64,000 nt of DNA from NCBI GenBank assembly GCA_964387845.1, contig CAYLXA010000001.1, positions 288,001 through 352,000 on the forward strand, in the 5' to 3' direction. The position numbers were made by a program, and so were the translations under genes. This DNA comes from an uncultured bacterium (GTDB lineage Bacteria; Omnitrophota; Omnitrophia; Omnitrophales; Abzuiibacteriaceae). The notes beneath the pieces are model-generated. The model was not told where the DNA came from. It saw nothing but the letters and a program-made list of their open reading frames with translations, and ran no database searches. How positions within the stretch are numbered: the first letter of the stretch is position 1; every line of letters begins with the position of its first letter. This document shows, one piece after another, positions 9,901-59,038 of this stretch.

Positions 9901-10238
9901 ACTTGCCGAACGCTGGTTTCGCCGCCGACGCTCGTAACACCGGCCTTCCGGAAATATTTTGAAACCACAATGTCCGTCGCAAGCTGCGTCCAAGACTTTG
10001 GAATTTCGGCGTCTTCCATTTTAAACACAACAGAACCATCGGGATTGCTGATCACAGATTTGCGGCGGTCCCACTCAATCTGATCGAAAGGATGAACGCC
10101 TTCTTGCGTGAATCTGCGCGCAATATGAATCCCTTCACGCGAACTAACACCGGCACCGGCAGAAAAATGTGCTTTTCCGTTTGATCCTGCTTCAGCCGAT
10201 TTATTCGCTTGTTTGGTTTTTTGTGTTTTTGCTGACAT
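6969..10238 (-). CDS. nrdJ: adenosylcobalamin-dependent (class II) ribonucleotide reductase
   Basis: 1089-aa ORF with a Cys-rich C terminus ([27 protein letters not shown]) typical of NrdJ and the RNR catalytic core. A strong SD GGAGG sits 8 nt upstream of the ATG. Confidence 0.9.
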
Positions 10239-10299
10239 TATGAATTCCTCCGTTATCGAATCCTTAAGCTACCTTACTAAGCCGCTTAGGAGCTTTATT

Positions 10300-10346
10300 G
10301 TAGCATATATAGTGTTCTTTTAGAACTTCTCTACCATATCTAGTGC
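10300..10346. promoter_or_regulatory. candidate tandem NrdR boxes in the nrdJ leader
   Basis: gtagcATATATAGTGTt (12/16 match to the NrdR consensus acaCwAtATaTwGtgt) and taCcATATcTAGTGcc (11/16). Their centres are about 31 bp apart, the spacing usually seen for NrdR operators. Confidence 0.3.
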
Positions 10347-10504
10347 CCGTAATGGACAATTCGGCACTCTTGGATTTTACTTAAGCTTATTTTTCTCCCT
10401 TTTTCGCTATCTGAATTAGTTGTTCTTTAGGCTAGATGTATTTGGACCTGGTTGACCCACAAAATTCACGATGGACTTTGTAAATAAACTGACAGGAAGT
10501 CAGG

Positions 10505-10551
10505 AAAAAAAACGACTGAACCGGGCTCTCTTTAAGAGCCTGGTTCAGTCG
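10505..10551 (-). terminator. rho-independent terminator of mnmE
   Basis: 17-bp stem cgactgaaccgggctct / agagcctggttcagtcg with one mismatch, followed on the minus strand by a U8 tract (A8 on the plus strand, 10505-10512). Confidence 0.7.
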
Positions 10552-10760
10552 CTTCATTTCACTGTTGGATGTTTCGAACAAGCATTAATTATGATTCCGT
10601 TACTTTCATCCGCGACTCTGCGATTTTGATCGCTCATCGCTTCCAATCGTTCATTGAATTTTTCATCAAAGAACTTTAACTGCCGAGTGAAGAGAATTTT
10701 ATGCGAGAAATAATTCAGTGTCAACAACAAAAATATTTTTTTTTAAAATCTCGCACAAAA

Positions 10761-12137: not shown

Positions 12138-12139
12138 AG

Positions 12140-12205
12140 TTTTAAGTCGTAAGTGGTAAGGGCTAAGTTATTCGATCGCTTAACACTTACCACTTATCAC
12201 TTATC
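12140..12205. repeat. GTAAGT-heptad hairpin element, copy 1 (family i)
   Basis: aagtcgtaagtggtaag ... cttaccacttatcactta: tandem (N)GTAAGT units followed by their inverted complement. It fills the whole mnmE-folC gap and overlaps the folC stop. Confidence 0.55.
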
Positions 12206-13529
12206 CCTTCTTCAATTGTTCGCTCGCTTCTGCGACAAGAAATAACGATCCGGTAATCACCGTGATTGCATTCCGGTCACTGAGCCGCTTTGAATATTCC
12301 AAGGCTTCTTTTATATTTTCAGCCGGGATCATCAAATCAAAATATGCTTTGCCGGCTTCCATCATGACTTTCAAATCCTGCGCTCTCGGCTGATCAGCTT
12401 TTGTGAGAATGACTAGCTGCGCAACACCGGCCAAAGCACCGAGCATTGATTTTAAATCTTTTTCCCGTGAGGCGCCAAAGATAACCTGGATTTTCTTTCT
12501 TGGCAATAAGCGCCTGATGTTTCGGGCTAATGCGCTCATGGAAGCATCGTTATGAGCGCCATCCAAGATAAACATGCGGCCCTTCTTATTAATCACTTCA
12601 AAACGGCCGGGCCATTTAGCCGATAAAAGACCTGTTTTTATCTGAGATTGGGATATTCCGAGACCCATTTGACGGTTTAAAACATGAATACCGGCTAAAG
12701 CCGTTGCAGCGTTTTCTGTTTGAATATCGCCGATCAAGTGTATTCGGCAACGTGCCAGCTTGATTTTCTTCATACTGAAATCAAACACAGAGCCATTAAT
12801 ATCCATCCGGCGAATTCGAGCTTGGAAATCCGTGCCCGAAAAGATACCCTTCACGCCAAGCGTGCGGCATCTTTTTTGAAGTACTGATTTTGCTTCAGAT
12901 GTTTGTTTCGACGATACAAACGGCGTGTTGCGCCGGATGATCATGGATTTGTCTTTCGCGATTTTGGCAATGGTGCTGCCCAGATGCTCCTGATGATCCA
13001 AACTGATCGGCATCATCACCGACAAATTCGGATGAACGATGGTCGTTGCGTCAAGCCGTCCGCCCATTCCGACCTCGAGAACCGCCCAATCAATTTTTTG
13101 CTCCGCAAAATATAAAAAAGCAATCAGTGTTGAAATTTCAAAAAATGTGATGGGTTCAAGCAATTTAATCTCGCGGCGTCTTTTCTCGATGGTCCTTTTT
13201 ACTTTCGATACCAGCTTCGCGAGTTCCGATTTTGATATCATTTTCCCGTTAACGCGGATCCGCTCGCGAAAATCAATCAAGTGCGGCGATGTGTACATCC
13301 CGGCTTTGAATCCGGCAGATTGGAGAATCGATTGAAAAAAGACAGCGGCCGAACCTTTTCCCTTTGTTCCGCCGATTAAAATGGACGGATACTTTTTCTC
13401 GGGATTGCCGAACCAGCGCGCAAGCACACGCATCCGCTCGATGTTGAGCTCGCGTTTGTATTCGAAATGCGACACTTTCTCGAGGTTAAAGAAGGAATAA
13501 AGATACTGAAGCGCCGAAGCGTAGGTCAT
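12201..13529 (-). CDS. folC: folylpolyglutamate synthase / dihydrofolate synthase
   Basis: Mur-ligase-family P-loop GTKGKGS with FolC-like N- and C-terminal domains. Confidence 0.85.
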   Translation of the reverse strand: MTYASALQYLYSFFNLEKVSHFEYKRELNIERMRVLARWFGNPEKKYPSILIGGTKGKGSAAVFFQSILQSAGFKAGMYTSPHLIDFRERIRVNGKMISKSELAKLVSKVKRTIEKRRREIKLLEPITFFEISTLIAFLYFAEQKIDWAVLEVGMGGRLDATTIVHPNLSVMMPISLDHQEHLGSTIAKIAKDKSMIIRRNTPFVSSKQTSEAKSVLQKRCRTLGVKGIFSGTDFQARIRRMDINGSVFDFSMKKIKLARCRIHLIGDIQTENAATALAGIHVLNRQMGLGISQSQIKTGLLSAKWPGRFEVINKKGRMFILDGAHNDASMSALARNIRRLLPRKKIQVIFGASREKDLKSMLGALAGVAQLVILTKADQPRAQDLKVMMEAGKAYFDLMIPAENIKEALEYSKRLSDRNAITVITGSLFLVAEASEQLKKG

Positions 13530-13541
13530 GGAAAGCGGGGT

Positions 13542-15104
13542 TTAATGTTTGAAATGACGTTCGCCGGTAAAAACCATGGCAATGCCGTAATGATCGCAGG
13601 CCGCGATAACTTCCGAATCTTTAATCGAGCCGCCCGGCTGAATGATGGCACGGATACCGTTCTGATGGGCGACTTCGATATTATCCGGCATCGGGAAAAA
13701 CGCATCACTCGCAAGCATGCTTCCGCGCGACCATGATTTTGCTTTTTCGCAGGCCAATTTGACGGCATCGACCCGGGACGTCAAGCCGCCGCCGATTCCC
13801 ACGGTCTGCGTTCCGCGCACAAGCACAATCGCGTTTGACTTCGTGACTTTGACGCAGCGCCAAGCAAAAAGCAGAGATGCCAATTCTTCTTTCGACGGCT
13901 TTGATTTCGTAACGGTTTTCAAATTTTTATTCAGCCTGGCTAAATGATGGTCAATCGGGTCGTCTCGGTCCTGCAGCAAAACGCCGCTTTTCACGTACCT
14001 CAAATCATACGGCCCGATGTGGCGAAACTCTGGCACTTCAATAACGCGGAGATTTTTACGCTCCTGGAATATTTTGAGTGCTTCTTTTGAAATTTTAGGC
14101 GCAACAACGACTTCGAAGAAAGTAAGTTTGGCAAAAAGCATCCGCGCAGCAGCGGCCGTCACTGGCTGATTGACGCCCACAATACCGCCGAACGCCGAAA
14201 GCGGATCGCAATCGACAGCCTGCGCAATCGCAGTTTCCAGATCCTGATTCACGGAAATGCCGGAAGGATTGTTGTGCTTCACCACACACGCCGCGGTTTC
14301 TTTGAATTCGCGCATGATGTCGACCGTTGCATCGATATCAAGAATATTGTTATATGAAAGTTCTTTGCCCTGAAATTGAGTAAACGAAAATTTGGGCGCC
14401 GAATCAAGCCGCGTGTAAAGCGCCGCGCGCTGGTGCGGATTTTCGCCGTACCTGAGCGTGGCGGATTTCTTAAACGGAACGCTCAAAAATTCAGGCAGGC
14501 CTTCTTCTTTCACAAATTGCTTTTCAAGATAATGCGCAATGGCATGATCATAAGCCGATGTATGCTGAAACGCTTTCAGAGCAAGTTTCTCTAGCGTTTC
14601 TGCCGATAATTTTCCGCCGTTCTTCTGCAATTCTTCAGCCAACACTGTGTAATCCGCTGCATCGGTAACGACCGCAACCGATTCGTGATTCTTCGCCGCC
14701 GAACGGATCATCGCCGGGCCGCCGATGTCGATATTTTCAATAGCTTCGGCCAGTTTCACCTTCGGATTTTTGACCGTTTCCTGGAACGGATAAAGATTGA
14801 TGACCACCATATCGATCGGCTGAATGCCGTGCTGTTTGGCTTGTTTGGCGTGCGATTTAAGGGAACGCCGGAATAAAATGCCGCCGTGAACTTTGGGGTG
14901 AAGGGTTTTGACGCGCCCGTCCATCATTTCAGGAAAGCCGGTAAGATCCGAGATATTTTTAACCTTGAGACGCGCTTTCTTGAGCGCCGCCTCCGTACCG
15001 CCGGTTGAAATCAACTCAACGCCTAATTTGGCAAGCGTTTTTGCGAAATCCACGACGCCGGTTTTATCGGATACGCTGATGAGTGCGCGTTTAATTTTTG
15101 CCAT
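13542..15104 (-). CDS. purH: bifunctional AICAR transformylase / IMP cyclohydrolase
   Basis: 520-aa ORF with an MGS-like N-terminal domain (MAKIKRALISVSDKTGVVDFAK) and an AICARFT domain. Confidence 0.9.
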   Translation of the reverse strand: MAKIKRALISVSDKTGVVDFAKTLAKLGVELISTGGTEAALKKARLKVKNISDLTGFPEMMDGRVKTLHPKVHGGILFRRSLKSHAKQAKQHGIQPIDMVVINLYPFQETVKNPKVKLAEAIENIDIGGPAMIRSAAKNHESVAVVTDAADYTVLAEELQKNGGKLSAETLEKLALKAFQHTSAYDHAIAHYLEKQFVKEEGLPEFLSVPFKKSATLRYGENPHQRAALYTRLDSAPKFSFTQFQGKELSYNNILDIDATVDIMREFKETAACVVKHNNPSGISVNQDLETAIAQAVDCDPLSAFGGIVGVNQPVTAAAARMLFAKLTFFEVVVAPKISKEALKIFQERKNLRVIEVPEFRHIGPYDLRYVKSGVLLQDRDDPIDHHLARLNKNLKTVTKSKPSKEELASLLFAWRCVKVTKSNAIVLVRGTQTVGIGGGLTSRVDAVKLACEKAKSWSRGSMLASDAFFPMPDNIEVAHQNGIRAIIQPGGSIKDSEVIAACDHYGIAMVFTGERHFKH

Positions 15105-15117
15105 TTTTGTTTCCTAA

Positions 15118-15212
15118 TTCCCTCTCCCTTTGGGAGAGGGCTAGGGTGAGGGATTTCTATAAATCCCACCACCCTCATCCTAACCTTCTCCCTCTAAAGA
15201 GGGAGAAGGGAT
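15118..15212. repeat. nested palindromic element, family ii (CCCTCTCCC-N3-GGGAGAGGG / GGGTGAGGG), copy A
   Basis: ccctctccctttgggagagggctagggtgaggg ... ccaccctcatcc ... cttctccctctaaagagggagaagg. It overlaps the 3' end of the PabC-like gene, whose C terminus reads PSPSLEGEG. Confidence 0.55.
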
Positions 15213-34084: not shown

Positions 34085-35578
34085 TTATCTGTTGGAAAGG
34101 GCTTCGACAAGCGCTTTTCCCTTGTGAAGCGTCTCTTGATACTCTGCGGCGGGTTTTGAATCATGCACAATACCGGCGCCGACTTGGAAGTAACCCTTTT
34201 GCTGATTAATCACGATTGTGCGGATCACAATGTTGAGATCCAGATCACCATCAAAACCAAAATAGCCAATGGAGCCGGTATAAATCCCGCGTTTGAAAGG
34301 TTCCAGCTCTTCGATAATTTCCATACAGCGAATCTTTGGGCATCCCGTGATAGTTCCGCCCGGGAACATCGCGCGTACCAAATCAAATTGATCCGCATCA
34401 TCACGAAGCTCGCCCTTTACGTTTGAGACAATGTGCACAACGTGTGAATATTCCTCAAGCGCCATCATCTCGCTCACGCGCACCGTGTGCGGCTTGCACA
34501 CGCGCCCCAAATCATTGCGTTCCAGATCTACTAGCATAATGTGCTCGGCGCGCTCTTTATCATTTGAGATAAGTTCACTGCGCAGTTTCTGATTTTGCAC
34601 TGCCGTTTTCCCGCGCGGCCGGGTCCCTGCAATCGGGCGCGTTTCGCACGCACTTCCCCGCTTTTTGATGAGGCGCTCCGGCGAAGAGCTAATCACCTGC
34701 AAATCGCCGAGACGAAAGAAACTGGAAAAAGGTGACGGATTGATATCCCGCAAACGTTCATAGAGTTTCTCAGAACTTCCTGAGAAATCAAACGAGAACC
34801 GCTGTGAAAGATTGGCTTGATAAATATCGCCTGCCTCTATGTAATCTTTGCCTTTTTTGACAATCGCTTCGAATTTTGATTTTTGAATATCAGATTTAAA
34901 ATTCTGAATTTGTATTTGTCCATTTTGATAAAGCGTTTGATTGAGTTTCGAGAGAGTCTCTTGAATCCAATTTTGACTTTCACTTAGCTGATCCTCAAAA
35001 CTCTTTCTCTCGGAAGGCATTAAATTGCTGATGAGATAAATCGCTTTCTTTGATTCATCGTAAGCGATCAAATTTCGGATGAATAGGAAAACAGCTTCAT
35101 CCAGTTTTTGGTCATTCTTCGCCCGGTTGGGCAGGCGTTCAAAATCCCACGCCAAATCATAGGAAAAATAACCAACCGCGCCGCCTAAAAATTCAGGGCC
35201 GGCGTTCCATTTTCTTCCGCGATAAGTTTTAAAGAGCTTGCGCATTTCCAGAAGAAAATCACCGCGTTTTTTTACGACCCTCACCCTGCCCTCTCCCTCA
35301 GGGAGAGGGAAACGCGAAGCGTGGGTGAGGGATTTTTCGATCGAAATATTTTTACCCTGCTTTCGCAAGATTAAAAACGGGTCGCTGGCCATATAGGAAA
35401 ATGTACCGGTTTTCTGGTGAAAGCGCGCGCTATCCAGGATAAACGAATTTTCGGAAGACTGGATCCTGCGGAAAGTTTCCCAGGAACTCAACGAAGCGGG
35501 GATTTTTTGGATCAGCGGAACAATGAAGCCTTTTTGGAAATATTTTCGAAGTGTCGTGATGGGCAGAACGTTATTCAT
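34085..35578 (-). CDS. pabB: chorismate-binding enzyme, aminodeoxychorismate synthase component I (PabB) / anthranilate synthase component I family
   Basis: C-terminal chorismate-binding signature (PIAGTRPRG...ERAEHIMLVDLERNDLGRV...GGTITGCPK). Assigned PabB-like because pabC-like and folC genes are nearby and no trpG/trpD is present. Confidence 0.65.
   Translation of the reverse strand: MNNVLPITTLRKYFQKGFIVPLIQKIPASLSSWETFRRIQSSENSFILDSARFHQKTGTFSYMASDPFLILRKQGKNISIEKSLTHASRFPLPEGEGRVRVVKKRGDFLLEMRKLFKTYRGRKWNAGPEFLGGAVGYFSYDLAWDFERLPNRAKNDQKLDEAVFLFIRNLIAYDESKKAIYLISNLMPSERKSFEDQLSESQNWIQETLSKLNQTLYQNGQIQIQNFKSDIQKSKFEAIVKKGKDYIEAGDIYQANLSQRFSFDFSGSSEKLYERLRDINPSPFSSFFRLGDLQVISSSPERLIKKRGSACETRPIAGTRPRGKTAVQNQKLRSELISNDKERAEHIMLVDLERNDLGRVCKPHTVRVSEMMALEEYSHVVHIVSNVKGELRDDADQFDLVRAMFPGGTITGCPKIRCMEIIEELEPFKRGIYTGSIGYFGFDGDLDLNIVIRTIVINQQKGYFQVGAGIVHDSKPAAEYQETLHKGKALVEALSNR
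35278..35331. repeat. family ii nested palindromic element, copy B, inside the pabB-like coding frame
   Basis: ccctcaccctgccctctccctcagggagagggaaacgcgaagcgtgggtgaggg. It is translated in frame as FPLPEGEGRVRVV near aa 85-100. Confidence 0.5.
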
Positions 35579-36976: not shown

Positions 36977-37321
36977 TTACTTAACAATTGCTCCAGACGG
37001 TAAATCTTTTTCGGGAGTTAGAAATGCGAGACTTGAATCCGTGCTTGCGGCCAGCAGCATGCCTTGTGATTCAACGCCGCGGATCACGGCCGGAGCCAGA
37101 TTTTTCACCACCACGATTTTTTTACCGACCAGCTCTTCAGGTTTATAGAATTGTTTAATACCGGCCACGATGGTCCGTTGCTCATCGGCAATCTTAATCC
37201 TCAAAACCCACAAACGGTCGGCGTTGGGATGCGGCTCCACTGCCAGGATTTCGGCCACCCGCAGCTCCAGCTTCTTAAAATCATCGTATGTAATGGTTTC
37301 AGTCGTCATTTGAGCCGCCAT
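36977..37321 (-). CDS. tRNA-binding (EMAP/Trbp111/CsaA-type OB-fold) domain protein
   Basis: MAAQMTTETITYDDFKKLELRVAEILAVEPHPNADRLWVLRIKIADEQRTIVAGI...NLAPAVIRGVESQGMLLAAS. Start set at internal ATG 37321; the longer N-terminal extension crosses repeat DNA. Confidence 0.65.
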   Translation of the reverse strand: MAAQMTTETITYDDFKKLELRVAEILAVEPHPNADRLWVLRIKIADEQRTIVAGIKQFYKPEELVGKKIVVVKNLAPAVIRGVESQGMLLAASTDSSLAFLTPEKDLPSGAIVK

Positions 37322-37361
37322 TCTATCACTAACCAAATAACGGTGGCAAGAAGGCTTCTCT

Positions 37362-37515
37362 AGCAGTATGGGATATCTCTTCCGGCACCAGCAGTTCGCA
37401 AGCTCCTGCGGCTTGCGCCTGCCTGCGCGCTCGCCCGTTGAACCCGCCGAAAAGCATGGCGGGGCCAAGCTTCAACGGGCTCCGCGAGCTGCCTTTAGAG
37501 ATATCCCATACTGCT
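37362..37515. mobile_element. MITE-like element with perfect 19-bp terminal inverted repeats (AGCAGTATGGGATATCTCT ... AGAGATATCCCATACTGCT) flanking a 116-bp GC-rich core
   Basis: The inverted repeats are read directly at 37362-37380 and 37497-37515. A large structured 5'-leader hairpin is the alternative interpretation. Confidence 0.3.
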
Positions 37516-37599
37516 TTACTTTAATAGCGGAAAACAGAAAATCGTTAAAGCTTACCTTCGGAGGGAATAATTTGCCGAATGCGGCTCACGGAACCACGA

Positions 37600-37690
37600 G
37601 GAGCTAGGCCCCCCGACTCTATTTCGCAAAGCGAGACAGCGGGGGTCCGAGTGGTGAGTGCGCAGGCGGCTTGACGCCGCAGCCCGTCAC
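37600..37690. repeat. family iii element (ggCCCCCc...TTCGCAAAGCGAG.CAGCGGGGGTC...GCGCAGGCGG), copy 1
   Basis: About 65 nt are near-identical to 40964-41028. An inner TCGC-AAA-GCGA hairpin is nested inside a C5/G5 stem. Confidence 0.5.
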
Positions 37691-37987
37691 CTACATTGAA
37701 TTTCCTATTGAAGGTGAGGGCTGTCCCAATTCACCTATGAATAAACGTCTTAAGGCTTTAATGATAATTGGGACTGGAACGGCCGAAGTGCCGGTGCCGG
37801 CAGACAATCCTTGCCGGTGCTTAATAAAGATGGAAAACTAGTTTATTGTTGTAAGTTATTATAAATAAATGACTTATGGAATATAGTTTTTCTTGTCAGG
37901 TAGCGAAAAAATGATAGAATATCGGTCTCATTTTTGACTTTGTATCCGCGAATGTGGCCCTCAGTAAGCGTCTAAAGGGAGAGAAAA

Positions 37988-39097
37988 TTGGGAAAGATTA
38001 AAATAGCAGTCGTCGGTGTCGGGAATTGCTGCGCTTCCCTGGTCCAGGGAATCGAGTTCTACCGCCATCAAAACGGCACCATTGCCAAGAGCCGTGAGCA
38101 TCTGGGTTTGATGCATTATAACCTAGGCGGCTACTTACCGGAAGACATCGAAATCGTCGCTGCGTTTGATATCGATAAACGTAAGGTCGGTGAACGCCTT
38201 GATGTCGCGCTAAAAGCCAAGCCCAATAATGTGCTCGAGCTTTTCGGCGATATTCCCCGCAGCCGTGTCGTGGTTCAAATGGGAACCGTGTTGGATGGGT
38301 ATTCGGAACACATGTCAGAATATCCTGTTGATCGCACATTTGTCCTCGCGAAACAAAAACCTGCCAATGTAGAACGCGTTCTGAAAGAGAGCGGCGCTGA
38401 AATTCTTTTGAATTATTTACCGGTTGGATCCGAGGAAGCCACACAATTCTACGCGGAAGCTTGCCTCAAAACGGGCGTGAGCTTCATTAATTGCATGCCT
38501 TCCTTTATTGTTTCAGATCCCAAATGGTCAAAGCGTTTTGAAGATAAGCGAATTCCCGTGATTGGCGATGATATTAAGGCTCAGCTGGGTGCTACAATTG
38601 TTCACCGCACGCTTGCGAAATTGTTTGCAGACCGCGGCGTCAAGATTGACCGCACCTATCAATTAAATACCGGCGGCAACACTGACTTTTTGAATATGCT
38701 CAACCGCAAACGCCTGGCATCCAAGCGCATTTCAAAGACGGAAGCCGTCCAAAGCCAGCTCGAAATTCCGCTGGATGAGGAAAATATTCACATCGGGCCT
38801 TCGGATTATGTCGCGTGGCAGAACGACAACAAAGTTTGTTATTTGCGCATGGAAGGCCGCGGATTTGCCGGTTTCCCGGTGAATGTCGAACTCAGGCTTT
38901 CTGTGGAAGATTCCCCCAATAGCGCCGGTGTCGCGATCGATGCGATCCGCTGCTGCAAGCTCGCGCGTGAACGCAATATCGGCGGGCCGCTCGTTTCAAT
39001 TTCAGCTTACGCGATGAAACATCCGCCGAAACAACTTCCCGATACCCAAGCCCGTGAACTCGTCGAAAAGTTCATCCAAGGCACTTGCCAGCGCTAA
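37988..39097 (+). CDS. ino1: myo-inositol-1-phosphate synthase (inositol-3-phosphate synthase), short bacterial/archaeal type
   Basis: 369-aa ORF, IAVVGVGNCCASLVQG Rossmann N terminus, MIPS-family core. The only plus-strand gene in the window. Confidence 0.8.
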   Translation: MGKIKIAVVGVGNCCASLVQGIEFYRHQNGTIAKSREHLGLMHYNLGGYLPEDIEIVAAFDIDKRKVGERLDVALKAKPNNVLELFGDIPRSRVVVQMGTVLDGYSEHMSEYPVDRTFVLAKQKPANVERVLKESGAEILLNYLPVGSEEATQFYAEACLKTGVSFINCMPSFIVSDPKWSKRFEDKRIPVIGDDIKAQLGATIVHRTLAKLFADRGVKIDRTYQLNTGGNTDFLNMLNRKRLASKRISKTEAVQSQLEIPLDEENIHIGPSDYVAWQNDNKVCYLRMEGRGFAGFPVNVELRLSVEDSPNSAGVAIDAIRCCKLARERNIGGPLVSISAYAMKHPPKQLPDTQARELVEKFIQGTCQR

Positions 39098-39175
39098 CCC
39101 GTCATTGCGAGGCGCTTAAATTGTCGCCGAAGCAATCTACGTTTTAAGCTTTGAAGAAGCCCTTCGCTCAGTGAA
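39098..39175. repeat. family iv element (CCGTCATTGCGAGGCGC ... CGCCGAAGCAATCT), copy 1
   Basis: ccgtcattgcgaggcgcttaaattgtcgccgaagcaatctacgtt closely matches the reverse complement of 46660-46703. Confidence 0.5.
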
Positions 39176-39377
39176 TTCAACGTGAGAAATCTATTTGCTT
39201 AGGCATTGGAACACCTTCCACCGTTCCTACAATACTTAACGCTGTAGGCCGTCGGCTTTCCAACGCCTTCACACATGATTTCTCTCTCACGAATTCAATT
39301 CGCTTCGGCGCTTCTTCAAAGCTTTCCGCGCCACCCGCATCTAAATCCTAAGGCCGCAAATTGCGACCTTAGAATTT

Positions 39378-39917
39378 CTACCCAATCTTCCCGGGCCGAT
39401 GCGGATCCATCTCAAAACCAATCGCATCCGTAGTCGGCGGCGCCAAAAGCGGCCTAATCATTTTGAACAATCTCTGCAAAGCTCTGTCGTGATCGAGCAG
39501 AACCTTCTCAATTTCATCCAATCGTCCGTGCAGAATTTGATTCAGGTTGAAAACTTCTCTCAATCTCACAAAAGCACGGATCACGTAAACGCTCATACGG
39601 ACAGCTCGGTCACTGTTTAAAATGTTGGCTGCCATTAACGCCCCGTGTTCTGTGAAAGCAAAAGGAAGATACCGATCGCCACCCCGACCCTCTTTCTTTG
39701 AGGTCACAATCTGTGACCTCAAAAATTCTGCTTCCTCCAGAGTAAGCTGAAACATGAAATCTGCCGGAAAACGGCTTCGGTTACGTTTGACAGCTTGATT
39801 GAATGCTTTTGTGCTCACCCCATAAAGCTCCGCTAAGTCACGGTCAAGAATAACGCTCTGACTCCGGATGATGAGAACACGATTTTCTACAGCTAATTTA
39901 GGACCTCTTTTAGACAT
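39378..39917 (-). CDS. ORF6N (KilA-N-related) DNA-binding domain protein
   Basis: VLIIRSQSVILDRDLAELYGVSTKAFNQAVKRNRSRFPADFMFQLTLEE...GRGGDRYLPFAFTEHGALMAANILNSDRAV is typical of the ORF6N domain. The gene lies in an AT-rich stretch. Confidence 0.55.
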   Translation of the reverse strand: MSKRGPKLAVENRVLIIRSQSVILDRDLAELYGVSTKAFNQAVKRNRSRFPADFMFQLTLEEAEFLRSQIVTSKKEGRGGDRYLPFAFTEHGALMAANILNSDRAVRMSVYVIRAFVRLREVFNLNQILHGRLDEIEKVLLDHDRALQRLFKMIRPLLAPPTTDAIGFEMDPHRPGKIG

Positions 39918-40070
39918 GAAACACCCCTCTTATTGGTTTTAAATGGAGGGGGGATTTTAATTTTGTTTTTTACTGCGGGAGATATGGAATTATATATAAC
40001 TTTTACGATTAATCAACACTCAACTTCTAGCCTGTCCCCTTAGAAGGTGCCTGGCACTTTTTTTATGAGA

Positions 40071-40739
40071 TCAAATGACCCCTTTCATTAATGTTTCTTT
40101 AACTTTCTTGGCATTTTTTAGTCCTTCGTCAATCAAAGAAATAAAATACTCAATTTCTCCATTTAAAGTACTAGGATAAAAATCTCCAACCCGACAGCAT
40201 CCTTCACAAATTCCATCCATAGCTTGAACGTAAGCGGTTTCAGCAAATGTAAGCCATTCACGCGTTTCATTCCATGTTTCCTTCCCATCATGAGTACGCC
40301 AGGGGAAATTATGAACACGTTGAATATTCCGATGAGGATTTATCTTGTCACTAATATCTTTTATTTTTTCCTCGTACTCATCAAAATGAGATAAAAACTC
40401 TTTTCGTTGTTGTTTTAACCTATCTTTTGAGAAAGTCTGTCTTTCTAATTTTAGTTCAATATTTTCTTCTGAAACTTCTTTGCTTTTTTGCATTAAATTC
40501 CATAAACTAGCTTCACTAGAACGACCAAAAATCTTTCCTAAAGCGAGAATGTACTTTGTTTCCAAAGCATCTCGAATAAAGCTGAATAAGCCACCAAATT
40601 CTCGTTCAAATCCTTCTGATTGAACAAGCCCGTTATTCCATTTGAATAATAAAGCATGGAAAATGTTAGCCTCGCAAAGATCTCTGCTTACACAGGTTTC
40701 TATTACCTTCAGTGAATCTTGAACTTCATCCATCATCAA
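40071..40739 (-). CDS. hypothetical protein; possible HEPN-like candidate (R-x5-H in PHRNIQRVH), partner of the ORF6N gene
   Basis: 222-aa ORF, noticeably more AT-rich than its neighbours. No confident motif. Confidence 0.4.
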   Translation of the reverse strand: MMMDEVQDSLKVIETCVSRDLCEANIFHALLFKWNNGLVQSEGFEREFGGLFSFIRDALETKYILALGKIFGRSSEASLWNLMQKSKEVSEENIELKLERQTFSKDRLKQQRKEFLSHFDEYEEKIKDISDKINPHRNIQRVHNFPWRTHDGKETWNETREWLTFAETAYVQAMDGICEGCCRVGDFYPSTLNGEIEYFISLIDEGLKNAKKVKETLMKGVI

Positions 40740-40832
40740 CCTCCAATAAATTCATGATTCTGTACCAATTATAAAAGCATTCATATTTTATGCCCCCAAT
40801 TCGCAGAAGACAACCTGGTTCTCGAAATAGAA

Positions 40833-40908
40833 CGCCCTCACCCCCTCCGGGCCTAAGGCCCGATAGGGCCGGAGGCTCACCCTACCCCTCTCCCAAAGGG
40901 AGAGGGAA
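40833..40908. repeat. family ii nested palindromic element, copy C
   Basis: gccctcaccccctccgggcctaaggcccgatagggccggaggctcaccctacccctctcccaaagggagaggg. Confidence 0.5.
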
Positions 40909-40959
40909 AAACAAAGGAAGAATCTGGCTTTGTGGAGGCGGCTCTCGGAATCCTTCAGA

Positions 40960-41070
40960 GCTTGGTCCCCCACCGTTTTGTTTCGCAAAGCGAGGCAGCG
41001 GGGGTCTGAAGGATGAGAGCGCAGGCGGTCGAGCCCGCGGGAGGCGAGAACCGCCGGCGCCGGAACAAAG
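40960..41070. repeat. family iii element, copy 2, followed by further GC-rich palindromes
   Basis: ggtcccccaccgttttgtttcgcaaagcgaggcagcgggggtctgaaggatgagagcgcaggcgg. The spurious 94-aa plus-strand ORF 40790-41074 translates repeat DNA. Confidence 0.5.
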
Positions 41071-41081
41071 CTAGATTCTGA

Positions 41082-41963
41082 CTAAATTAGTGCTAATCCG
41101 ATTAATTTGTAAATAAGGCGCGCGACGAGGAAATTGGGGGCGTGAAGCTTTTCTATCGGTGATAATTCCATGACATCAAAACCAACAATTTTTCGTGACT
41201 TGGCGATTTCCCTAAAAAGCGCCATGGCTTCATGCCACAAAAGACCGTTGGGTTCCGGTGTTCCGGTTGCGGGCATAATCGAAGGGTCAAAACCATCTAC
41301 ATCGATCGTAATATAAACTTCATCCGTTAAATTGGTCAGCGCGGTGTGAATCCAATCTTGAATTGCCATCTTTTTGATTTCGTGCGCGTATAAAATGTTT
41401 ACGTTTTGCTTCTTGGCGACCCTGATTTGATCCGGTGAAATGCTGCGGATACCGACTTGCGAAAGCGGGCACTTTCCTGCAATGCGCGCCGCAATTGAGG
41501 CGTGCGAATAAGGCGTTCCCTCATAAGAATCGCGCAAATCCGCGTGAGCGTCGATCTGCAGAACGGACATTTTGGGATATTTCTTCAAGTGTGATTTGAT
41601 TAACGCGCTTGAAATAGAATGTTCACCGCCGATTCCGACCAGGAATTTATTTTCCGAGAGAATTTCATCCGATCGCTTTTCCAATCTTTCGATAAATTGC
41701 TTCGGGTCTTTTTCCTTTGCGGCAGGTTTGAAGCTTGGAAGTGTCGCAATCGATACCTTTTTACATGTTTCAACACCCAATTCCTCATCGTAATACTCCA
41801 CATAACGAGAAGCATCAATAACAGCTTTGGGGCCGCGGGATGTGCCTTTTCCGTAAGAGACCGTTCCTTCATAAGGAACCGGCAAAACAGCAACTTTGGA
41901 TTTGGTGTAAGCGGGTTCGGGATCCTGGCCTAAAAAGTTAAATGGGGCTTTTTCGTGCTGCAT
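41082..41963 (-). CDS. speB: agmatinase (ureohydrolase family)
   Basis: Mn-binding motifs GGEHSIS, DAHADL and SIDVDGFDP. Confidence 0.85.
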   Translation of the reverse strand: MQHEKAPFNFLGQDPEPAYTKSKVAVLPVPYEGTVSYGKGTSRGPKAVIDASRYVEYYDEELGVETCKKVSIATLPSFKPAAKEKDPKQFIERLEKRSDEILSENKFLVGIGGEHSISSALIKSHLKKYPKMSVLQIDAHADLRDSYEGTPYSHASIAARIAGKCPLSQVGIRSISPDQIRVAKKQNVNILYAHEIKKMAIQDWIHTALTNLTDEVYITIDVDGFDPSIMPATGTPEPNGLLWHEAMALFREIAKSRKIVGFDVMELSPIEKLHAPNFLVARLIYKLIGLALI

Positions 41964-42013
41964 AGGTAATCCTTCGAGAAACTCAGGATGAGTGGGTCAG
42001 CAAGCTGACCTCC

Positions 42014-42559
42014 TCACACGATAAAAACGCAGGAAGCGAGAACGGTGGTCCAGCGGCCGTCTTTATCGCCTTCGGCGCTTTGCGTCACTTCCGTGGTACG
42101 GACGATTTGATTTGAAATTTTCCAGATTTCGCGCTTAGCGTCGTAACTAGAATCCGGATCAAACTTCACACCGGAGACCGTTGCCAACATTTCAGCCGCC
42201 AAGTCTTCGGCATAATCGCCCGTTTTTTTATCCGTCCAGCCGTAAGCGTGATGTTCTGACAAATAGCCGTGCTGGTTCGAGTCTTTTGGAATCGCAATGC
42301 CGACACTGGCTGAAATCAACCTGTTGGGCTCGTTCGTTGCATTGTCGCTCATCACGCAAAACACGATTTGGCCGGCTGAAAGATACTTCAAACCTTCTTT
42401 GCTCGGAATGATTTTGCAGTTGGGTGGGAAAATGCTCGATACTTTTACCAAATTATAGTTCGCAATACCGGCATCGCGCAGCGCAAGCTCAAAGCTGGCC
42501 AATTTTTCAAGATGAATGCCGACGCCTTTCGTCATAAAACATTTTTTGGGTAGAATCAC
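42014..42559 (-). CDS. pdaD: pyruvoyl-dependent arginine decarboxylase
   Basis: 181-aa ORF; N terminus and the self-cleavage-region pattern (FFMTKGVG...SSIFPP) are typical of PdaD. Confidence 0.8.
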   Translation of the reverse strand: MILPKKCFMTKGVGIHLEKLASFELALRDAGIANYNLVKVSSIFPPNCKIIPSKEGLKYLSAGQIVFCVMSDNATNEPNRLISASVGIAIPKDSNQHGYLSEHHAYGWTDKKTGDYAEDLAAEMLATVSGVKFDPDSSYDAKREIWKISNQIVRTTEVTQSAEGDKDGRWTTVLASCVFIV

Positions 42560-42575: not shown

Positions 42576-43955
42576 TTAACGGTCCACAATATCGTCTGAA
42601 GCAACAATCGGAATCAAGCCGCCGTTCTGCATAATGTTAATCACAGTTTCATCGCCAAGTTTTGAAATACCGCCTGCGTATTTCCAATCAAACACAAAAG
42701 CGCCGACGCTCACGCGGCGATAAACCATCTCGAGTTTGTTATTCACGATGGCCGGAACGGTCATTTTGGGAACGCTCACATATTCCTGAATGATCCAATT
42801 GTTCTTGAGCGCCTTGTCGATCGCGGCGTTCCAATCTTCATCGCGTGTTTCGGCGCCGATCACGACATCGCCCCGGTTTCCGTAGCCGATGGTGGGTTTT
42901 AAAACCAAAGAATCCTTTTCATCTTTCAAAAAATCAATCAAATAGCTTTTCCGCCTGCCGTAAAAACGTTCGGCATCCGACACCTGGCGCGTCCACGGCA
43001 GATGATTTTGCTTAAACTCATTTTCTTTGTCCGTGAAATAACGGTCGTAATCGGGATTCGTTAAAATAGATATCAAGGCACGGCTCGAGGCGAGGCGCGA
43101 CCTTAAAGGATTAACCATGCACACCGCACGTTCACGGTAAGCCTTCAGAAAATCTTGGATTTCATCGGCTTTTTCGGCGAGCTCATGACAAACGACGCGG
43201 CGGTATACCAAATCAACCCTGAAATTACCATGATAAAGCTTTCCGGTCTTGAATTTAAGCTCTCTGGGGTCTGCAATGGTTGCCTTGTAGCCTTTGGACT
43301 CAAAAAATGCCTTTAGGATCTCAAATTCGGGGCGCGTGCGGACCGATTTCCAATCCACAATCGCAATATTGGGCGTCTCAAATCCGCCGAATTCCTCATA
43401 AGCGCTTAAAAGTGCCGAGAGAAGTCTCTCGAAGCGCTCTTCTTTCTTAAAATGAAACTCGGCAAAAAAATCTTTCAAATCCGGTGTTTCAAAAATGATT
43501 TTCTCAAGCTCATTGGCATAAGCCGTACCGGCCGGCGCATCGCAGTTGAGCTGAATAAACTTGAGTGCTTCGCCTTCTAAGAATCCATCCAGACGCATCA
43601 TCACGACATTGCGTGAATAACCGGGATCGATTTTGATTAATTCCTGGATTTCCGGCGTGTAGCGAAAGTGCTCCGCCACCACGGGATCCGTAAAATAAAG
43701 GTTGGTTGCTTTGTTGACAATGGAAAGAAAACTATCGGAAACCGTCCGAAGAATTTTTTCCTGCTTGGCCGTAATAAAATGCGGCTTCAGGAAAGCCGGA
43801 ACGATGAAGCGGCCGTACTTGATATTCTGCTTTTTGAGCTCTTCCTGGAAATGATTGATGGCTTTCGGGAAACTCTTTTCATGCGCCATCACGAATTGAT
43901 CGAAGGCGTAATCGATGCTTTTATTGGAATCAATGGATGAAGGTGTCCACGCCAT
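42576..43955 (-). CDS. ATP-grasp-like ligase, glutathionylspermidine-synthase / YgiC-like family (tentative); context suggests polyamine conjugation
   Basis: 459 aa with no decisive motif. The call rests on size, pattern and adjacency to pdaD-speB. Confidence 0.35.
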   Translation of the reverse strand: MAWTPSSIDSNKSIDYAFDQFVMAHEKSFPKAINHFQEELKKQNIKYGRFIVPAFLKPHFITAKQEKILRTVSDSFLSIVNKATNLYFTDPVVAEHFRYTPEIQELIKIDPGYSRNVVMMRLDGFLEGEALKFIQLNCDAPAGTAYANELEKIIFETPDLKDFFAEFHFKKEERFERLLSALLSAYEEFGGFETPNIAIVDWKSVRTRPEFEILKAFFESKGYKATIADPRELKFKTGKLYHGNFRVDLVYRRVVCHELAEKADEIQDFLKAYRERAVCMVNPLRSRLASSRALISILTNPDYDRYFTDKENEFKQNHLPWTRQVSDAERFYGRRKSYLIDFLKDEKDSLVLKPTIGYGNRGDVVIGAETRDEDWNAAIDKALKNNWIIQEYVSVPKMTVPAIVNNKLEMVYRRVSVGAFVFDWKYAGGISKLGDETVINIMQNGGLIPIVASDDIVDR

Positions 43956-46021: not shown

Positions 46022-46029
46022 TTTTTATC

Positions 46030-46120
46030 CAGTGTTAAGTTGTAAGTGATAAGTTTTAAGTTATTCAATTACTTACCACTTATAACTTATCACTTACCAC
46101 TATGTTACAAACTTACAAAA
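46030..46120. repeat. GTAAGT-heptad hairpin element, copy 2 (family i)
   Basis: gttaagttgtaagtgataagttttaagtt ... acttaccacttataacttatcacttaccac ... acttac. It fills the sucC-start to gamma-CA-stop gap. Confidence 0.55.
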
Positions 46121-49200: not shown

Positions 49201-49815
49201 TTAGACTCTCACTAAGTGAATCAGCGAACTGAGGCCCATCGTGAAAACAATTACGCCAAGAAGCGCGGAAAACACGGCTGAGACTCTTTGTGATTTTGGC
49301 CCGACCGTAATGCCCCAGCTGATTGCAAATCCCCAAAGGCCGTTTGCAAAATGGAAACACACGGCAGCAAGACCAACGATGTAAAACCAAAATGTAAACG
49401 GATTCGCCATAAGTTCCTGCATCCGCGCAAAACTCACTTCCGTTCCGTAAAGCGCGTGCATAATGCGTGTTTCATAAACGTGGTACAAAATATAGGCAAA
49501 CGTAATCAAGCCCGTCCAGCGCTGAAGTACATAGAGAAAATTTTTTGTGTTCGGATAAGACGACAGGTTGGATTTTCCGCTAAACCAGACGTAGAAACCG
49601 TAACCGGCATGATACAAAATCGGAAGCGCGATAAAGATGATTTCAAGTGCAACCACAAACGGCAAACTTTGCAGGAATTCGATTTTTTCGTTGTAAGCTT
49701 CCGGGCCTTGTGTAATGAAGGAATTCGTGAACATGTGCTCCAGCAAAAAAGCGCCGATCGGAAATACGCCGGAAAGCGAGTGGAGCCTTCTAAGCCAGAA
49801 TGAGGATTTAGACAT
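49201..49815 (-). CDS. sdhC: succinate dehydrogenase cytochrome b558 membrane subunit (single large anchor, type B)
   Basis: 204 aa, five predicted TM helices with conserved His residues. Directly upstream of sdhA. Confidence 0.7.
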   Translation of the reverse strand: MSKSSFWLRRLHSLSGVFPIGAFLLEHMFTNSFITQGPEAYNEKIEFLQSLPFVVALEIIFIALPILYHAGYGFYVWFSGKSNLSSYPNTKNFLYVLQRWTGLITFAYILYHVYETRIMHALYGTEVSFARMQELMANPFTFWFYIVGLAAVCFHFANGLWGFAISWGITVGPKSQRVSAVFSALLGVIVFTMGLSSLIHLVRV

Positions 49816-49818
49816 TTT

Positions 49819-49908
49819 TCAGTCGTAAGTTGTAAGTGGTAAGTCGTAAGTTAATAAAATGGTAAGTTTTTGCTTCTTACTTACCACTTATCACTTACGA
49901 CTTACAAC
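49819..49908. repeat. GTAAGT-heptad hairpin element, copy 3 (family i)
   Basis: cgtaagttgtaagtggtaagtcgtaagtt ... cttacttaccacttatcacttacgacttacaac. Spans sdhC start to mdh stop. Confidence 0.55.
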
Positions 49909-50831
49909 TGGAGTTTACCGATACTTTCTTTCACATGCGCAACCGACTTTTGAAGCGCTGCTTGATCAGCGGCAGAAATTTTAAGCTCGATCACTTTTCG
50001 GACGCCGCTTTTATCCAAACTCACCGGAACACCGCAATAAGTACCGGAAATTCCGTATTCACCGTTCAAAAGTACGCAGCACGGCAAAATTCGGCCTGAG
50101 TCATTCAAAATTGCTTCGACCATTGCAACTGCCGAACTTGACGGCGCATAATACGCGCTGCCTGTTTTAAGCAAATTCACAATTTCGATTCCGCCGTCGC
50201 GCGTGCGCTGATTAATTGCATCGATTCTTTCTTTCTTGATGAGCTGTGTAATCGGAACGCCGTTCACGGTCGAGAAATCAGGGACCGGAACCATCGAATC
50301 GCCGTGGCCGCCCAACACCATCGCGCGAACGTCTTTCGGTGATACTTTGAGTTCTTCGGCAATAAAATACGCATAACGCGAGGAATCCAGAACGCCCGCC
50401 ATACCGATCACGCGCTTTGAATCAAACCCTGATTTCTTCCACGCCAGATAAGCCATGACATCCAGCGGGTTTGTGACAATAACGAGAATTGCTTTTGGAG
50501 AATATTTGACAATTTCGGTGACGATACCGCCCACGATTTCGGCGTTTTTGGCCTGCAAATCATCACGGCTCATGCCGGGCTTTCGGGCGAGGCCTGCTGT
50601 GATCACAACGACGTCAGAATCTTTTGTATCAGCGTAGGAATTGGTGCCGACGATTTTGGTATCGAATTGCTCGAATGAGGAAGATTCCATCATATCAAGC
50701 GCTTTTCCCTGCGGCATTCCTTCAACCACATCGACTAAAACGACATCCGCCAATTCTTTTTCAAGGATTCTTTGAGCGCAAGTGGCTCCGACGAAACCTG
50801 CTCCGACTACGGTCACTTTTGAACGATTCAT
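49902..50831 (-). CDS. mdh: malate dehydrogenase (LDH-like family)
   Basis: KVTVVGAGFVGATCAQ Rossmann motif, catalytic His/Arg pattern, 309 aa. Confidence 0.85.
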   Translation of the reverse strand: MNRSKVTVVGAGFVGATCAQRILEKELADVVLVDVVEGMPQGKALDMMESSSFEQFDTKIVGTNSYADTKDSDVVVITAGLARKPGMSRDDLQAKNAEIVGGIVTEIVKYSPKAILVIVTNPLDVMAYLAWKKSGFDSKRVIGMAGVLDSSRYAYFIAEELKVSPKDVRAMVLGGHGDSMVPVPDFSTVNGVPITQLIKKERIDAINQRTRDGGIEIVNLLKTGSAYYAPSSSAVAMVEAILNDSGRILPCCVLLNGEYGISGTYCGVPVSLDKSGVRKVIELKISAADQAALQKSVAHVKESIGKLQL

Positions 50832-57253: not shown

Positions 57254-59038
57254 CTACGAACGAACTTTATGATAGCGGCTTCTTAATAGCAAGAGAAAAG
57301 CAACATCTGCCGCTACCACGGCGGAAACATACCCCACACCACCGCCGCCAAAACCATAACTATGAAGCCCGGCCGCTAAGACAAAATTCACGCCGTACCA
57401 GGCCATGATCACCGTCAAAAAGCAGACCGCGCACCAAAACGCGGTCGCGAATGAATCCAGCCAGCCGGCAGTTCGCCCATGCATAACCGCCAAATACGCA
57501 AGTAACGCAATCAAAGCCCAGGTTTCCTTCGGATCCCAGCCCCAAAACCGGCCCCATGAATAATTCGCCCAAACGCCGCCCAGGATTGTTCCGGCAGCGA
57601 GCAAAATAAGCCCAATTTGAAGCGAACGATAAAGAAAAGTAATAAGCTCATCTAACGTTTTATTATTTTTTTTCTTAAAAGCATAGTGAAACACAACCAC
57701 ATGCGCGACACCCCAATTGAGCAAAAACGCACCATAGCCGAGCGTAATCGTCAGCACATGAACTGTGAGCCAAAAATTGCTGCGCAAAACGGGAACCAAA
57801 GGCGAAATCGACTGGTCCAAAACCGCCGGTAAATTTTCGCTGATCAAGAGCGCCAGAATGGATACGGACGCTGCGATCATCGGAATCAAATAGGACCTGT
57901 AAAAAGCAAAAAGAATGAGCGAGAAAAGCACAACACTCCACGACACCCAAATGACTGACTCATACATGTTCGTCACGGGCGGACGCCCGGCGATTAAACA
58001 ACGCAGCACAAAACCCAACGTATGAACCGCAAAAGCCGCGGTAAAAAATGAGAAAGCGATTTTATTGGCGCGTTTTTTATTTCTCAGTGTCAGCCAGATC
58101 AGAAGGCTGCCTAAATAAATTGCCCATGCCGTATGAAACGGGCGAAATTTGAGATAGAAAAGCTCGTAATGAATCAACGTCCGGTCGATGATGATGTCGC
58201 GCGATTCCAGTAATTTTGTAAGCGCATTGGCGAAAAATGAAGCAGATACGCCGGCCATTTCGATTTTTTCATCCCGCAAGCGGCCGAGGAGAAATGAAAG
58301 TGAGTTACTCGCTTCCTTCACATTCGCCGCGGGATACATGGTTTCCAAAATGGAAATACCGTGATCGCTCGCAAGCCCCTCAAGCGGAACCCACCCCGCC
58401 TGTGGATCATCGGGATGCGGAATAAAGCCCGGCATTTCTCCGCGCCCGATAGCCTGAAACAGACGCGCTCTGCTTCCGAGTTCAATCATTGCCTTTTCGT
58501 ATTCGTTTAGTTTTTCTTTTCTGTCCTGCTTAGCCCTTACTTCACCTGTTCTTGCCGTAAAATTCAAATCGGCGAGAACAAGAGAAGGTGCGATTCTATT
58601 GTTTTCCAGATCCGCGGAGAAATCCTTTCGTAACTCGGGATTTGAAACAGGTAAAATAGCCTTCGCGCTCCAAATATCGGGGGCCGCAATCCATCGCCAC
58701 ACCAGTTCGGTTGGCTCCATTTTTTGAAAATGTGTTTTGCCGGTCATATAGAGGACGATTTCTTTCGCGAAACTCTCAAACGGCTTGACGCGGCCGCCCT
58801 GCTGAACCGGAATTCCACCCAAAACTTCGTGCGCATTACCTTCGGATTGATTGGCAAAGGATTGGGGCGAGAAAAACATCGCCAAGAGAATGACTAAAGA
58901 AAGACTGACAATAAATTTACAATACACCCCCTCACCCTTTCCCTCTCCCTGAGGGAGAGGGGAATTGTTTAACTCACTCCCTCTCCCGCTTGCGGGAGAG
59001 GGCTGGGGTGAGGGTTGATTATTTAGAAATTGTCTCAT
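57254..59038 (-). CDS. ccsA: cytochrome c biogenesis protein CcsA (system II heme-handling WWD-domain protein) with a long N-terminal periplasmic domain
   Basis: WGRFWGWDPKETWALI (WWD motif) and conserved His residues. ATG 59038 overlaps the ccsB stop (TAATG) but would translate a palindromic repeat as MRQFLNNQPSPQPSPASGRGSELNNSPLPQGEGKGEG. An in-frame GTG at 58927 would instead start directly at a signal peptide (VYCKFIVSLSLVILLAMFFSPQSFA). Confidence 0.75.
   Translation of the reverse strand: MRQFLNNQPSPQPSPASGRGSELNNSPLPQGEGKGEGVYCKFIVSLSLVILLAMFFSPQSFANQSEGNAHEVLGGIPVQQGGRVKPFESFAKEIVLYMTGKTHFQKMEPTELVWRWIAAPDIWSAKAILPVSNPELRKDFSADLENNRIAPSLVLADLNFTARTGEVRAKQDRKEKLNEYEKAMIELGSRARLFQAIGRGEMPGFIPHPDDPQAGWVPLEGLASDHGISILETMYPAANVKEASNSLSFLLGRLRDEKIEMAGVSASFFANALTKLLESRDIIIDRTLIHYELFYLKFRPFHTAWAIYLGSLLIWLTLRNKKRANKIAFSFFTAAFAVHTLGFVLRCLIAGRPPVTNMYESVIWVSWSVVLFSLILFAFYRSYLIPMIAASVSILALLISENLPAVLDQSISPLVPVLRSNFWLTVHVLTITLGYGAFLLNWGVAHVVVFHYAFKKKNNKTLDELITFLYRSLQIGLILLAAGTILGGVWANYSWGRFWGWDPKETWALIALLAYLAVMHGRTAGWLDSFATAFWCAVCFLTVIMAWYGVNFVLAAGLHSYGFGGGGVGYVSAVVAADVAFLLLLRSRYHKVRS
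58927..59006. repeat. family ii nested palindromic element, copy D (two inner CCCTCTCCC/GGGAGAGGG palindromes inside a CCCTCACCC/GGGTGAGGG outer pair)
   Basis: ccctcaccctttccctctccctgagggagaggggaattgtttaactcactccctctcccgcttgcgggagagggctggggtgaggg. Confidence 0.55.

Follow-up and report, generated by a model that had tools for sequence, protein, structure and literature searches.

The question raised by this locus is whether two adjacent genes, lying between ino1 and the polyamine genes of an uncultured bacterium of the Omnitrophota, form a single defence module that was acquired as a unit. The locus was analysed within a stretch of 64 kb (contig CAYLXA010000001.1, positions 288,001-352,000; hereafter the window, to which all unprefixed coordinates refer). 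In a preliminary description made from the letters alone, the span 39378-40790 had been presented as an AT-rich islet of two genes, one for a protein with an ORF6N domain and one for an unknown 222-aa protein, bracketed by repeats and possibly constituting a toxin, defence or abortive-infection module of foreign origin. The span contains two co-directional open reading frames (ORFs) on the minus strand, at 39378-39917 (179 aa) and 40071-40739 (222 aa), which are separated by a gap of 153 bp. We consider it probable, though well short of certain, that only one of them, the 222-aa ORF, is foreign, that it is a HEPN gene placed in a strain-variable slot next to a resident ORF6N gene, and that its product acts as a stand-alone RNase of the abortive-infection type. 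The practical result is a correction of the annotation, from an unknown 222-aa protein to a rare AbiU2-type HEPN protein.

Composition and gene models

The G+C content (GC) of the 222-aa coding sequence is 0.345, and that of its third codon positions (GC3) is 0.256, as compared with a GC of 0.466 for the whole window and of 0.466 +/- 0.030 for 669-nt windows within it. This corresponds to a z value of -3.97 against all 669-nt windows and places the gene within the lowest 0.33% of them, so that the drop in composition previously remarked across 39920-40790 was borne out by the GC profile. The ORF6N coding sequence, with a GC of 0.469 and a GC3 of 0.472, is not distinguishable from its housekeeping neighbours, and its classification as an AT-rich or foreign gene was rejected on these values. 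As the ORF6N gene has native composition and the drop is confined to the 222-aa gene, the AT-rich islet consists of one gene with short flanks (about 39920-40790) and not of two.

The HEPN gene (40071-40739, minus strand) was delineated from the Pfam assignment, the homologues, the composition and the AlphaFold2 (AF2) model of its product. The 222-aa ORF begins at a TTG codon; an ATG at 40733 is preceded at 6 nt by GGAGG and gives a product of 220 aa, identical to a database protein of that length (P0001), and the probable start is therefore the ATG at 40733. A promoter-like site, TTGTCT-17-TAAAAT, is located 5' of the gene at 40785-40813 on the minus strand (9/12 positions in the consensus scan; a pattern match only).

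The HEPN protein and its family

The 222-aa protein matched the Pfam family HEPN_AbiU2 (PF18734) with an E-value of 2.7e-7 and a score of 30.7 bits, above the gathering threshold of 26.8 bits. HEPN domains are defined by an Rx4-6H motif with a polar residue following the arginine, and the AbiU2 family, found in restriction-modification (RM) operons, is listed among them in Table 1 of the defining survey (PMC3710099). The predicted catalytic motif of this form is present as R137-N138-I-Q-R-V-H143, encoded at 40311-40331 on the minus strand. In three alignments (A1, A2 and A5), one of them of 23 sequences down to 15% identity, R137 and H143 were the sole invariant residues and N138 was nearly invariant (at least 90% in each), with the consensus L-R-N-x-x-R-A-H-N. 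The weak HEPN-like hint that had been noticed at the peptide PHRNIQRVH thus proved correct, because this peptide holds the invariant R137 and H143 and carries the Rx4-6H signature, and the Pfam score is above threshold.

A word-indexed search of a collection of 5.8 billion proteins returned 14 homologues and a profile search of the same collection returned 29, of which 16 carried a precomputed PF18734 assignment. Distant members of the subfamily scored 29.2-44.7 bits on PF18734, covering profile positions 17-172. When 1.84 billion cluster representatives were searched exhaustively with an HMMER profile, only 49 clusters (50% identity) were obtained at E <= 1e-3, indicating a rare sub-clade. 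No relatives were detected in viral contigs by a scan with the family profile, and a tblastn search of plasmids with a strongly AbiU2-like distant member yielded no match to an annotated homologue.

The AF2 model of the protein is all-helical, with a predicted local distance difference test (pLDDT) score of 89.5 and two long helices at residues 2-39 and 190-221. Foldseek comparison of the model with the PDB gave nothing significant, the fold searches being non-specific, and searches of PDB sequences with either the single sequence or the family profile gave no match; nor was a usable match obtained in PADLOC, NCBIfam or PHROGs. Its profile match and motif mark the protein as a rare and divergent HEPN protein of the AbiU2 type whose predicted catalytic motif is intact. 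The copy of the PDB searched contained no solved structure of the AbiU2 family, and we are aware of no biochemical characterisation of any member; the small size (220 aa) and confident model of this protein could therefore make it convenient for testing the family.

The variable slot and the resident ORF6N gene

A Pfam scan of the neighbouring genes identified ino1 (37988-39097, plus strand) on one side, with tRNA_bind and DUF1015 genes also on this left side, and on the other the genes for agmatinase (speB, 41082-41963), a pyruvoyl arginine decarboxylase (PvlArgDC, 42014-42559) and a circularly permuted ATP-grasp protein (42576-43955), all three on the minus strand. The position between ino1 and the polyamine genes was thereby confirmed, and all of these neighbours are housekeeping genes. 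Relatives were found via a search with the ORF6N protein, which identified a protein of 96% amino acid identity (P0030). Four contigs derived from other samples (L091-L094) carry it; they run collinear with the window for 13 kb or more of housekeeping DNA at 74-82% nucleotide identity, and the amino acid identities to L091 are 98% for PvlArgDC, 96% for ORF6N, 94% for ino1, 92% for sucD, 91% for tRNA_bind, 87% for the ATP-grasp protein, 82% for speB and 79% for DUF1015. Their gene order is ATP-grasp, PvlArgDC, speB, a 371-aa gene and ORF6N, followed by ino1 on the opposite strand. The direct neighbourhood of ino1 and speB about which the preliminary description had asked was thus not seen in L091-L094, where the 371-aa gene and ORF6N lie between them.

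In blastn comparisons with L091, L092 and L093 the last homologous position on the ORF6N side is 39997, some 80 bp 5' of the ORF6N start, and homology begins again at 41092, within the terminal part of speB; consistently, sliding identity to L091 drops to background past 39999. The segment between these breakpoints (39998-41091, about 1.1 kb) has no homology to L091 and falls into two parts, a foreign core rich in A+T (39998-40790) and a block of dispersed repeats of native type that is rich in G+C (40790-41081). At the same position the sister genomes carry the 371-aa gene (GC 0.32; L091:8712-9827, L092:929-2044 and L094:3-860), whose start overlaps or abuts the speB stop, and the slot segment of L091 is AT-rich too (GC 0.31-0.35 against about 0.46). 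The window contains no trace of the 371-aa gene, and the HEPN gene is absent from L091-L094. The 371-aa protein has two predicted membrane segments and two C-terminal CxxC pairs, with no Pfam family and no PADLOC model; its identification as a known defence or metabolic protein was rejected, the weak CBM_4_9-like region and the zinc-ribbon hints being sub-threshold. Sporadic, horizontal acquisition of the HEPN gene is supported by its AT-rich composition together with its absence from the syntenic relatives.

The ORF6N gene behaves differently. Its sigma-70-like promoter, TTGATT-16-TATAAT (39989-40016, minus strand; 10/12), has both hexamers conserved in L091 and sits just on the conserved side of the boundary with the variable segment, and the ino1-ORF6N intergenic region is 75-81% identical in L091-L094. 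Since ORF6N and its promoter are kept at the same site in relatives with a differing gene upstream, ORF6N is by this synteny a resident of the locus in this lineage, only the gene upstream being strain-specific. The earlier proposal of horizontal acquisition accordingly holds for the 222-aa gene, by composition and by absence from relatives, but not for ORF6N; conversely, the conserved synteny that would have spoken for residence was found for ORF6N and not for the 222-aa gene. Comparison with L091:10001-10540 gave 0.030 nonsynonymous (dN) and 0.586 synonymous (dS) substitutions per site, a ratio of 0.05, which by this estimate places ORF6N under strong purifying selection. The dS of 0.59 is lower than that of all flanking genes (1.4-2.2) at a similar dN/dS, so that the ORF6N end could have been exchanged more recently, or its synonymous sites could be constrained.

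Beyond L091-L094, a more distant relative (L097; PvlArgDC 81%, ORF6N 63%) has ORF6N directly after PvlArgDC. Three further contigs (L004-L006; ino1 73-75% amino acid identity, one labelled Candidatus Omnitrophota) retain DUF1015, tRNA_bind and ino1, followed downstream of ino1 by other genes that include neither ORF6N nor HEPN, and these define no empty site.

The 179-aa protein was confirmed as an ORF6N-domain protein by Pfam (PF10543; E 7.7e-32, 109.9 bits against a threshold of 27.8; residues 13-99, profile positions 2-86 of 86). It also matched three PADLOC hidden Markov models of the defence candidate PDC-S05 (E 7.4e-49, 3.2e-45 over positions 11-160 of a 177-position model, and 1.6e-35) and is placed by PHROGs in anti-repressor families. 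In its predicted structure a KilA-N/APSES-like domain for DNA binding precedes a long helix that probably mediates oligomerisation. The family is large, with at least 7953 matches at E <= 1e-10, and its sites include RM and BREX loci, mobile elements and ordinary chromosomal positions. PDC systems are candidates, defined by their embedding in type I RM, BREX or DISARM loci (10.1101/2024.01.29.577857), and no such embedding was found here, the neighbours of ORF6N being ino1, the HEPN gene and speB. One PDC-S05 representative described as RhuM-type, a different protein from the window ORF6N, was reported to reduce the plating of phages T7 and T5 about 1000-fold in Escherichia coli (10.1101/2024.09.26.614923). 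The locus shows that an ORF6N/PDC-S05 gene can persist in a chromosome for a long time while strong purifying selection acts on it, and caution is warranted in taking every PDC-S05 match for a mobile defence gene.

The repeats were examined as possible marks of an insertion. The left copy, of dispersed family D7 (39100-39151, with a second copy at 46615), lies between ino1 and ORF6N in DNA that aligns with L091. The right copies belong to dispersed intergenic repeats between speB and the HEPN gene (40833-41070), which L091 lacks, its slot gene adjoining speB directly; they comprise a hairpin CCCTCTCCC-N3-GGGAGAGGG at 40886-40916, with further copies at 15120, 35289 and 58941, and a copy of family D5 at 40968-41028, with another at 37609, both of which fall within the variable segment. 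Copies do therefore exist on both sides, as previously described, but because the families are dispersed, with the left copy in shared DNA and the right copies part of the variable segment, no insertion is bracketed by them, and the repeats were rejected as insertion marks. No direct repeats flanking the AT-rich core were detected across 39900-40900, no tRNA gene was found in 37000-42000, no Rfam match was obtained around the slot, and no recombinase or integrase was encoded in the slot or among the syntenic neighbours; the signatures of an integrated mobile element or integron cassette (integrase or transposase, tRNA or att target, direct repeats) are thus lacking at this site. Replacement of the slot content would probably follow transfer between related strains, with speB and ORF6N/ino1 serving as the sites of homologous recombination.

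Gene neighbourhoods and predicted function

Readable contexts were available for eight AbiU2-subfamily homologues, mostly on short contigs. They contained an SNF2/phospholipase D (PLD) helicase with an MmeI/Eco57I methyltransferase and a T1RH-like gene; a PLD gene with HTH_17, HsdR and HsdM; a DUF4411 PIN gene with CoiA and a ribbon-helix-helix (RHH) gene, RHH_12; in an Omnitrophota metagenome-assembled genome, DUF6804 and a DUF1016-SNase nuclease, with NAD kinase/GltX downstream; DUF2971; an HTH_3 gene; gatCAB; and, lastly, a contig of the same organism (L001). RM or other defence genes (MmeI/SNF2-PLD, HsdR/HsdM, PIN/CoiA, DUF1016-SNase) are thus present beside homologues, whereas the window copy adjoins speB and ORF6N. 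An ORF6N gene occurred in 0/8 of these contexts. In the opposite direction, none of 82 ORF6N loci (80 metagenomic loci, L091 and L095) contained a gene of this HEPN subfamily in tblastn searches with all 29 of its proteins. The neighbours of ORF6N homologues are heterogeneous and include HTH_3, methylmalonyl-CoA mutase, integrases, HsdR/HsdS, a type IV secretion system coupling protein, RadC/JAB, Schlafen AlbA_2, DndB and DUF1016 nucleases, as well as ArdA on a Bacteroides plasmid with tra genes of a conjugative transposon. On L095 (8001-14024) a 66%-identical ORF6N homologue stands exactly where housekeeping genes (leuCDB, asd, truA) give way to a block that includes HicB, Vsr, an HNH protein and two methyltransferases of the Dcm type.

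These counts bear on the proposal that the two genes act as one system, in which ORF6N would serve the neighbouring HEPN toxin as its DNA-binding regulator, its antitoxin or its sensor. The genes are adjacent, co-directional and only 153 bp apart with no terminator detected between them, a solo HEPN protein requires some control, several HEPN homologues adjoin a small DNA-binding gene, albeit of differing families (HTH_3, HTH_17, RHH_12), and ORF6N belongs to a defence candidate family with one member reportedly active against T7 and T5. The absence of co-occurrence in either direction, together with the heterogeneous neighbours, nevertheless provides no evidence of a conserved ORF6N-HEPN pair; the sister genome retains ORF6N (96%) beside an unrelated neighbour, ORF6N has its own conserved promoter with the homology break upstream of it, and the contrast in composition is sharp (GC3 0.256 against 0.472). 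Such a functional pair is quite unlikely on this evidence, and the joint acquisition of two genes proposed earlier was not upheld.

Among ORF6N homologues outside the syntenic contigs, the two closest (72% and 69% identity) are each followed immediately by a DUF1016_N nuclease gene, as is the Omnitrophota AbiU2-subfamily homologue (L177:1004-2152; the contig of P0033; L084:2081-3301 and L085:2339-3559); some of these nuclease genes also contain SNase. The recurrence of DUF1016_N as a neighbour may point to variable or defence neighbourhoods of one and the same kind.

That recurrence beside both families is one of three observations that would suit an exchangeable slot anchored by ORF6N, in which ORF6N is the constant part (a sensor, regulator or DNA-capture factor) and the upstream gene an interchangeable effector cassette. 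The others are that differing AT-rich genes (GC 0.31-0.35) occupy the same position in two genomes and end just upstream of the ORF6N promoter, and that the low dS of ORF6N might reflect a more recent exchange of that end. Only two alleles have been seen, L097 has ORF6N directly after PvlArgDC with no cargo, the upstream neighbours at the 80 metagenomic ORF6N loci are heterogeneous, often housekeeping and not deviant in composition, the 371-aa protein has no defence-family match, and searches for a recombinase, for repeats resembling attachment sites and for target duplications were negative. An anchored slot in general is very unlikely in view of these findings, and its specific form in this Omnitrophota lineage, with an ORF6N sensor or regulator and swapped AT-rich effectors (HEPN in one case, a membrane/zinc-ribbon protein in the other), is more improbable still; if true, it would mean that the PDC-S05/ORF6N family acts in a modular manner not described so far.

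Alternatively, the HEPN protein could have no part in defence. It would then be a helical protein with a housekeeping task in RNA processing or nucleotide binding, or else an inert remnant, and the AT-richness of its gene would simply reflect recent transfer. HEPN domains have non-defence roles as well (PMC3710099), two of the homologue contexts are of housekeeping type (gatCAB; NAD kinase/GltX downstream), a PADLOC match is lacking and the fold searches were non-specific. The distribution is extremely sporadic and rare, the gene being absent from close relatives, and homologues recur in or beside RM/BREX-like, PIN, PLD and nuclease genes; moreover, the intact ORF and the motif strictly conserved in all homologues argue for a selected enzymatic function. 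We regard a non-defence role as unlikely.

The single acquired defence gene, which we prefer, is consistent with the naming of the family after a lactococcal abortive-infection (Abi) gene (PMC3710099) and with the RM/BREX-like, nuclease-rich loci of the homologues. Of the defence or abortive-infection module suggested earlier, one gene fits and the two-gene unit does not. By analogy with other HEPN proteins (PMC3710099), the protein would dimerise, and the two R137/N138/H143 motifs would form a metal-independent endoRNase site. Phage infection or another stress would unleash this site, with cleavage of host and/or phage RNA and an arrest of translation, as in abortive infection or toxin action. 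The roughly 90 residues beyond the minimal HEPN core (helices 2-39 and 190-221) might, speculatively, be an autoinhibitory or sensing part. ORF6N would act independently of the HEPN gene, from its own promoter, as a DNA-binding regulator or single-gene defence candidate.

Several points weigh against this reading. A toxic RNase that stands alone normally depends on an inhibitor or a trigger, and none was identified. To our knowledge RNase activity has been shown biochemically for no AbiU2-family protein, and the phenotype of the lactococcal AbiU system was reportedly attributed mainly to AbiU1 by Dai and colleagues in 2001. The PF18734 match is partial, spanning residues 27-138 and positions 21-128 of the 193-position profile, and clears the threshold by only some 4 bits, PADLOC has no model for the protein, and the eight homologue contexts and two slot alleles are small samples. 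Finally, transcriptional read-through from the HEPN gene into ORF6N may occur, as no terminator was detected between them.

The locus was compared with known systems. The protein resembles the AbiU2 family (PF18734; abiU2 of the AbiU locus of Lactococcus lactis; PMC3710099) in its score over threshold, in its size (about 200-230 aa), predicted all-helical character and invariant R-N-x3-R-x-H, and in the occurrence of its homologues as solo genes in or beside RM/defence genes. It differs in belonging to the rare divergent sub-clade with its incomplete profile coverage, in its uncultured host, and in a slot that lies amid housekeeping genes rather than in an RM operon, with neither a large AbiU1-like partner gene nor an adjacent Sel1-repeat gene. 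The HEPN-MNT type II/VII toxin-antitoxin systems (Shewanella SO_3166/SO_3165, PDB 5yep) involve a different HEPN family, the window protein being about 90 residues longer, and no ORF or Pfam match for an MNT nucleotidyltransferase was found on either side of the gene. ORF6N resembles PDC-S05 (Payne et al., 2024; 10.1101/2024.01.29.577857) in its full-length match to the 177-aa model and in its predicted KilA-N/APSES-like fold with a long helix. Members of PDC-S05 often occur embedded in RM loci, in integrative elements or on plasmids, whereas the window gene is chromosomal and conserved in the lineage, lies between ino1 and the polyamine genes, and stands outside RM, BREX and DISARM loci; the member reported to protect E. 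coli was described as RhuM-type, which may be the longer architecture. Like defence or variable hotspots flanked by core genes, the slot has identical breakpoints, differing AT-rich cargo and no recombinase of its own; unlike them it holds one gene per genome, in two alleles, and one cargo of the two has a defence-family signature.

The locus is thus probably an ordinary small defence gene beside a resident ORF6N gene, both of known families, and nothing in it should surprise a specialist. Its least ordinary aspect is the presence of two unrelated AT-rich genes at base-pair-identical breakpoints beside a conserved ORF6N gene, which makes it a clean natural case of a one-gene variable slot, with breakpoints at base-pair level, in the mostly uncultured Omnitrophota.

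A few minor features were recorded in addition. The CCCTCTCCC-N3-GGGAGAGGG hairpins resemble repetitive extragenic palindromic (REP) elements and are scattered in both orientations (15103-15150, 35289-35319, 40862-40923 and 58938-58985). A separate dispersed family, unrelated to the HEPN/ORF6N finding, forms GTAAGTG(G/A)TAAG-type arrays with inverted partners at 12132-12208, 46025-46101 and 49813-49912 (families D1/D3/D4 and I3-I5). In the sister genome, a giant gene of 3804 aa with no Pfam match on record (L091:15690-20540, running past the end of the locus) follows the chorismate-binding gene. Apart from the HEPN gene, the sole region of the window in which 669-nt windows reach a GC <= 0.38 is an AT-rich intergenic stretch of 520 bp (10239-10760) upstream of a 1089-aa class-II-ribonucleotide-reductase-like ORF (6969-10238, minus strand), which might represent a long leader or riboswitch.

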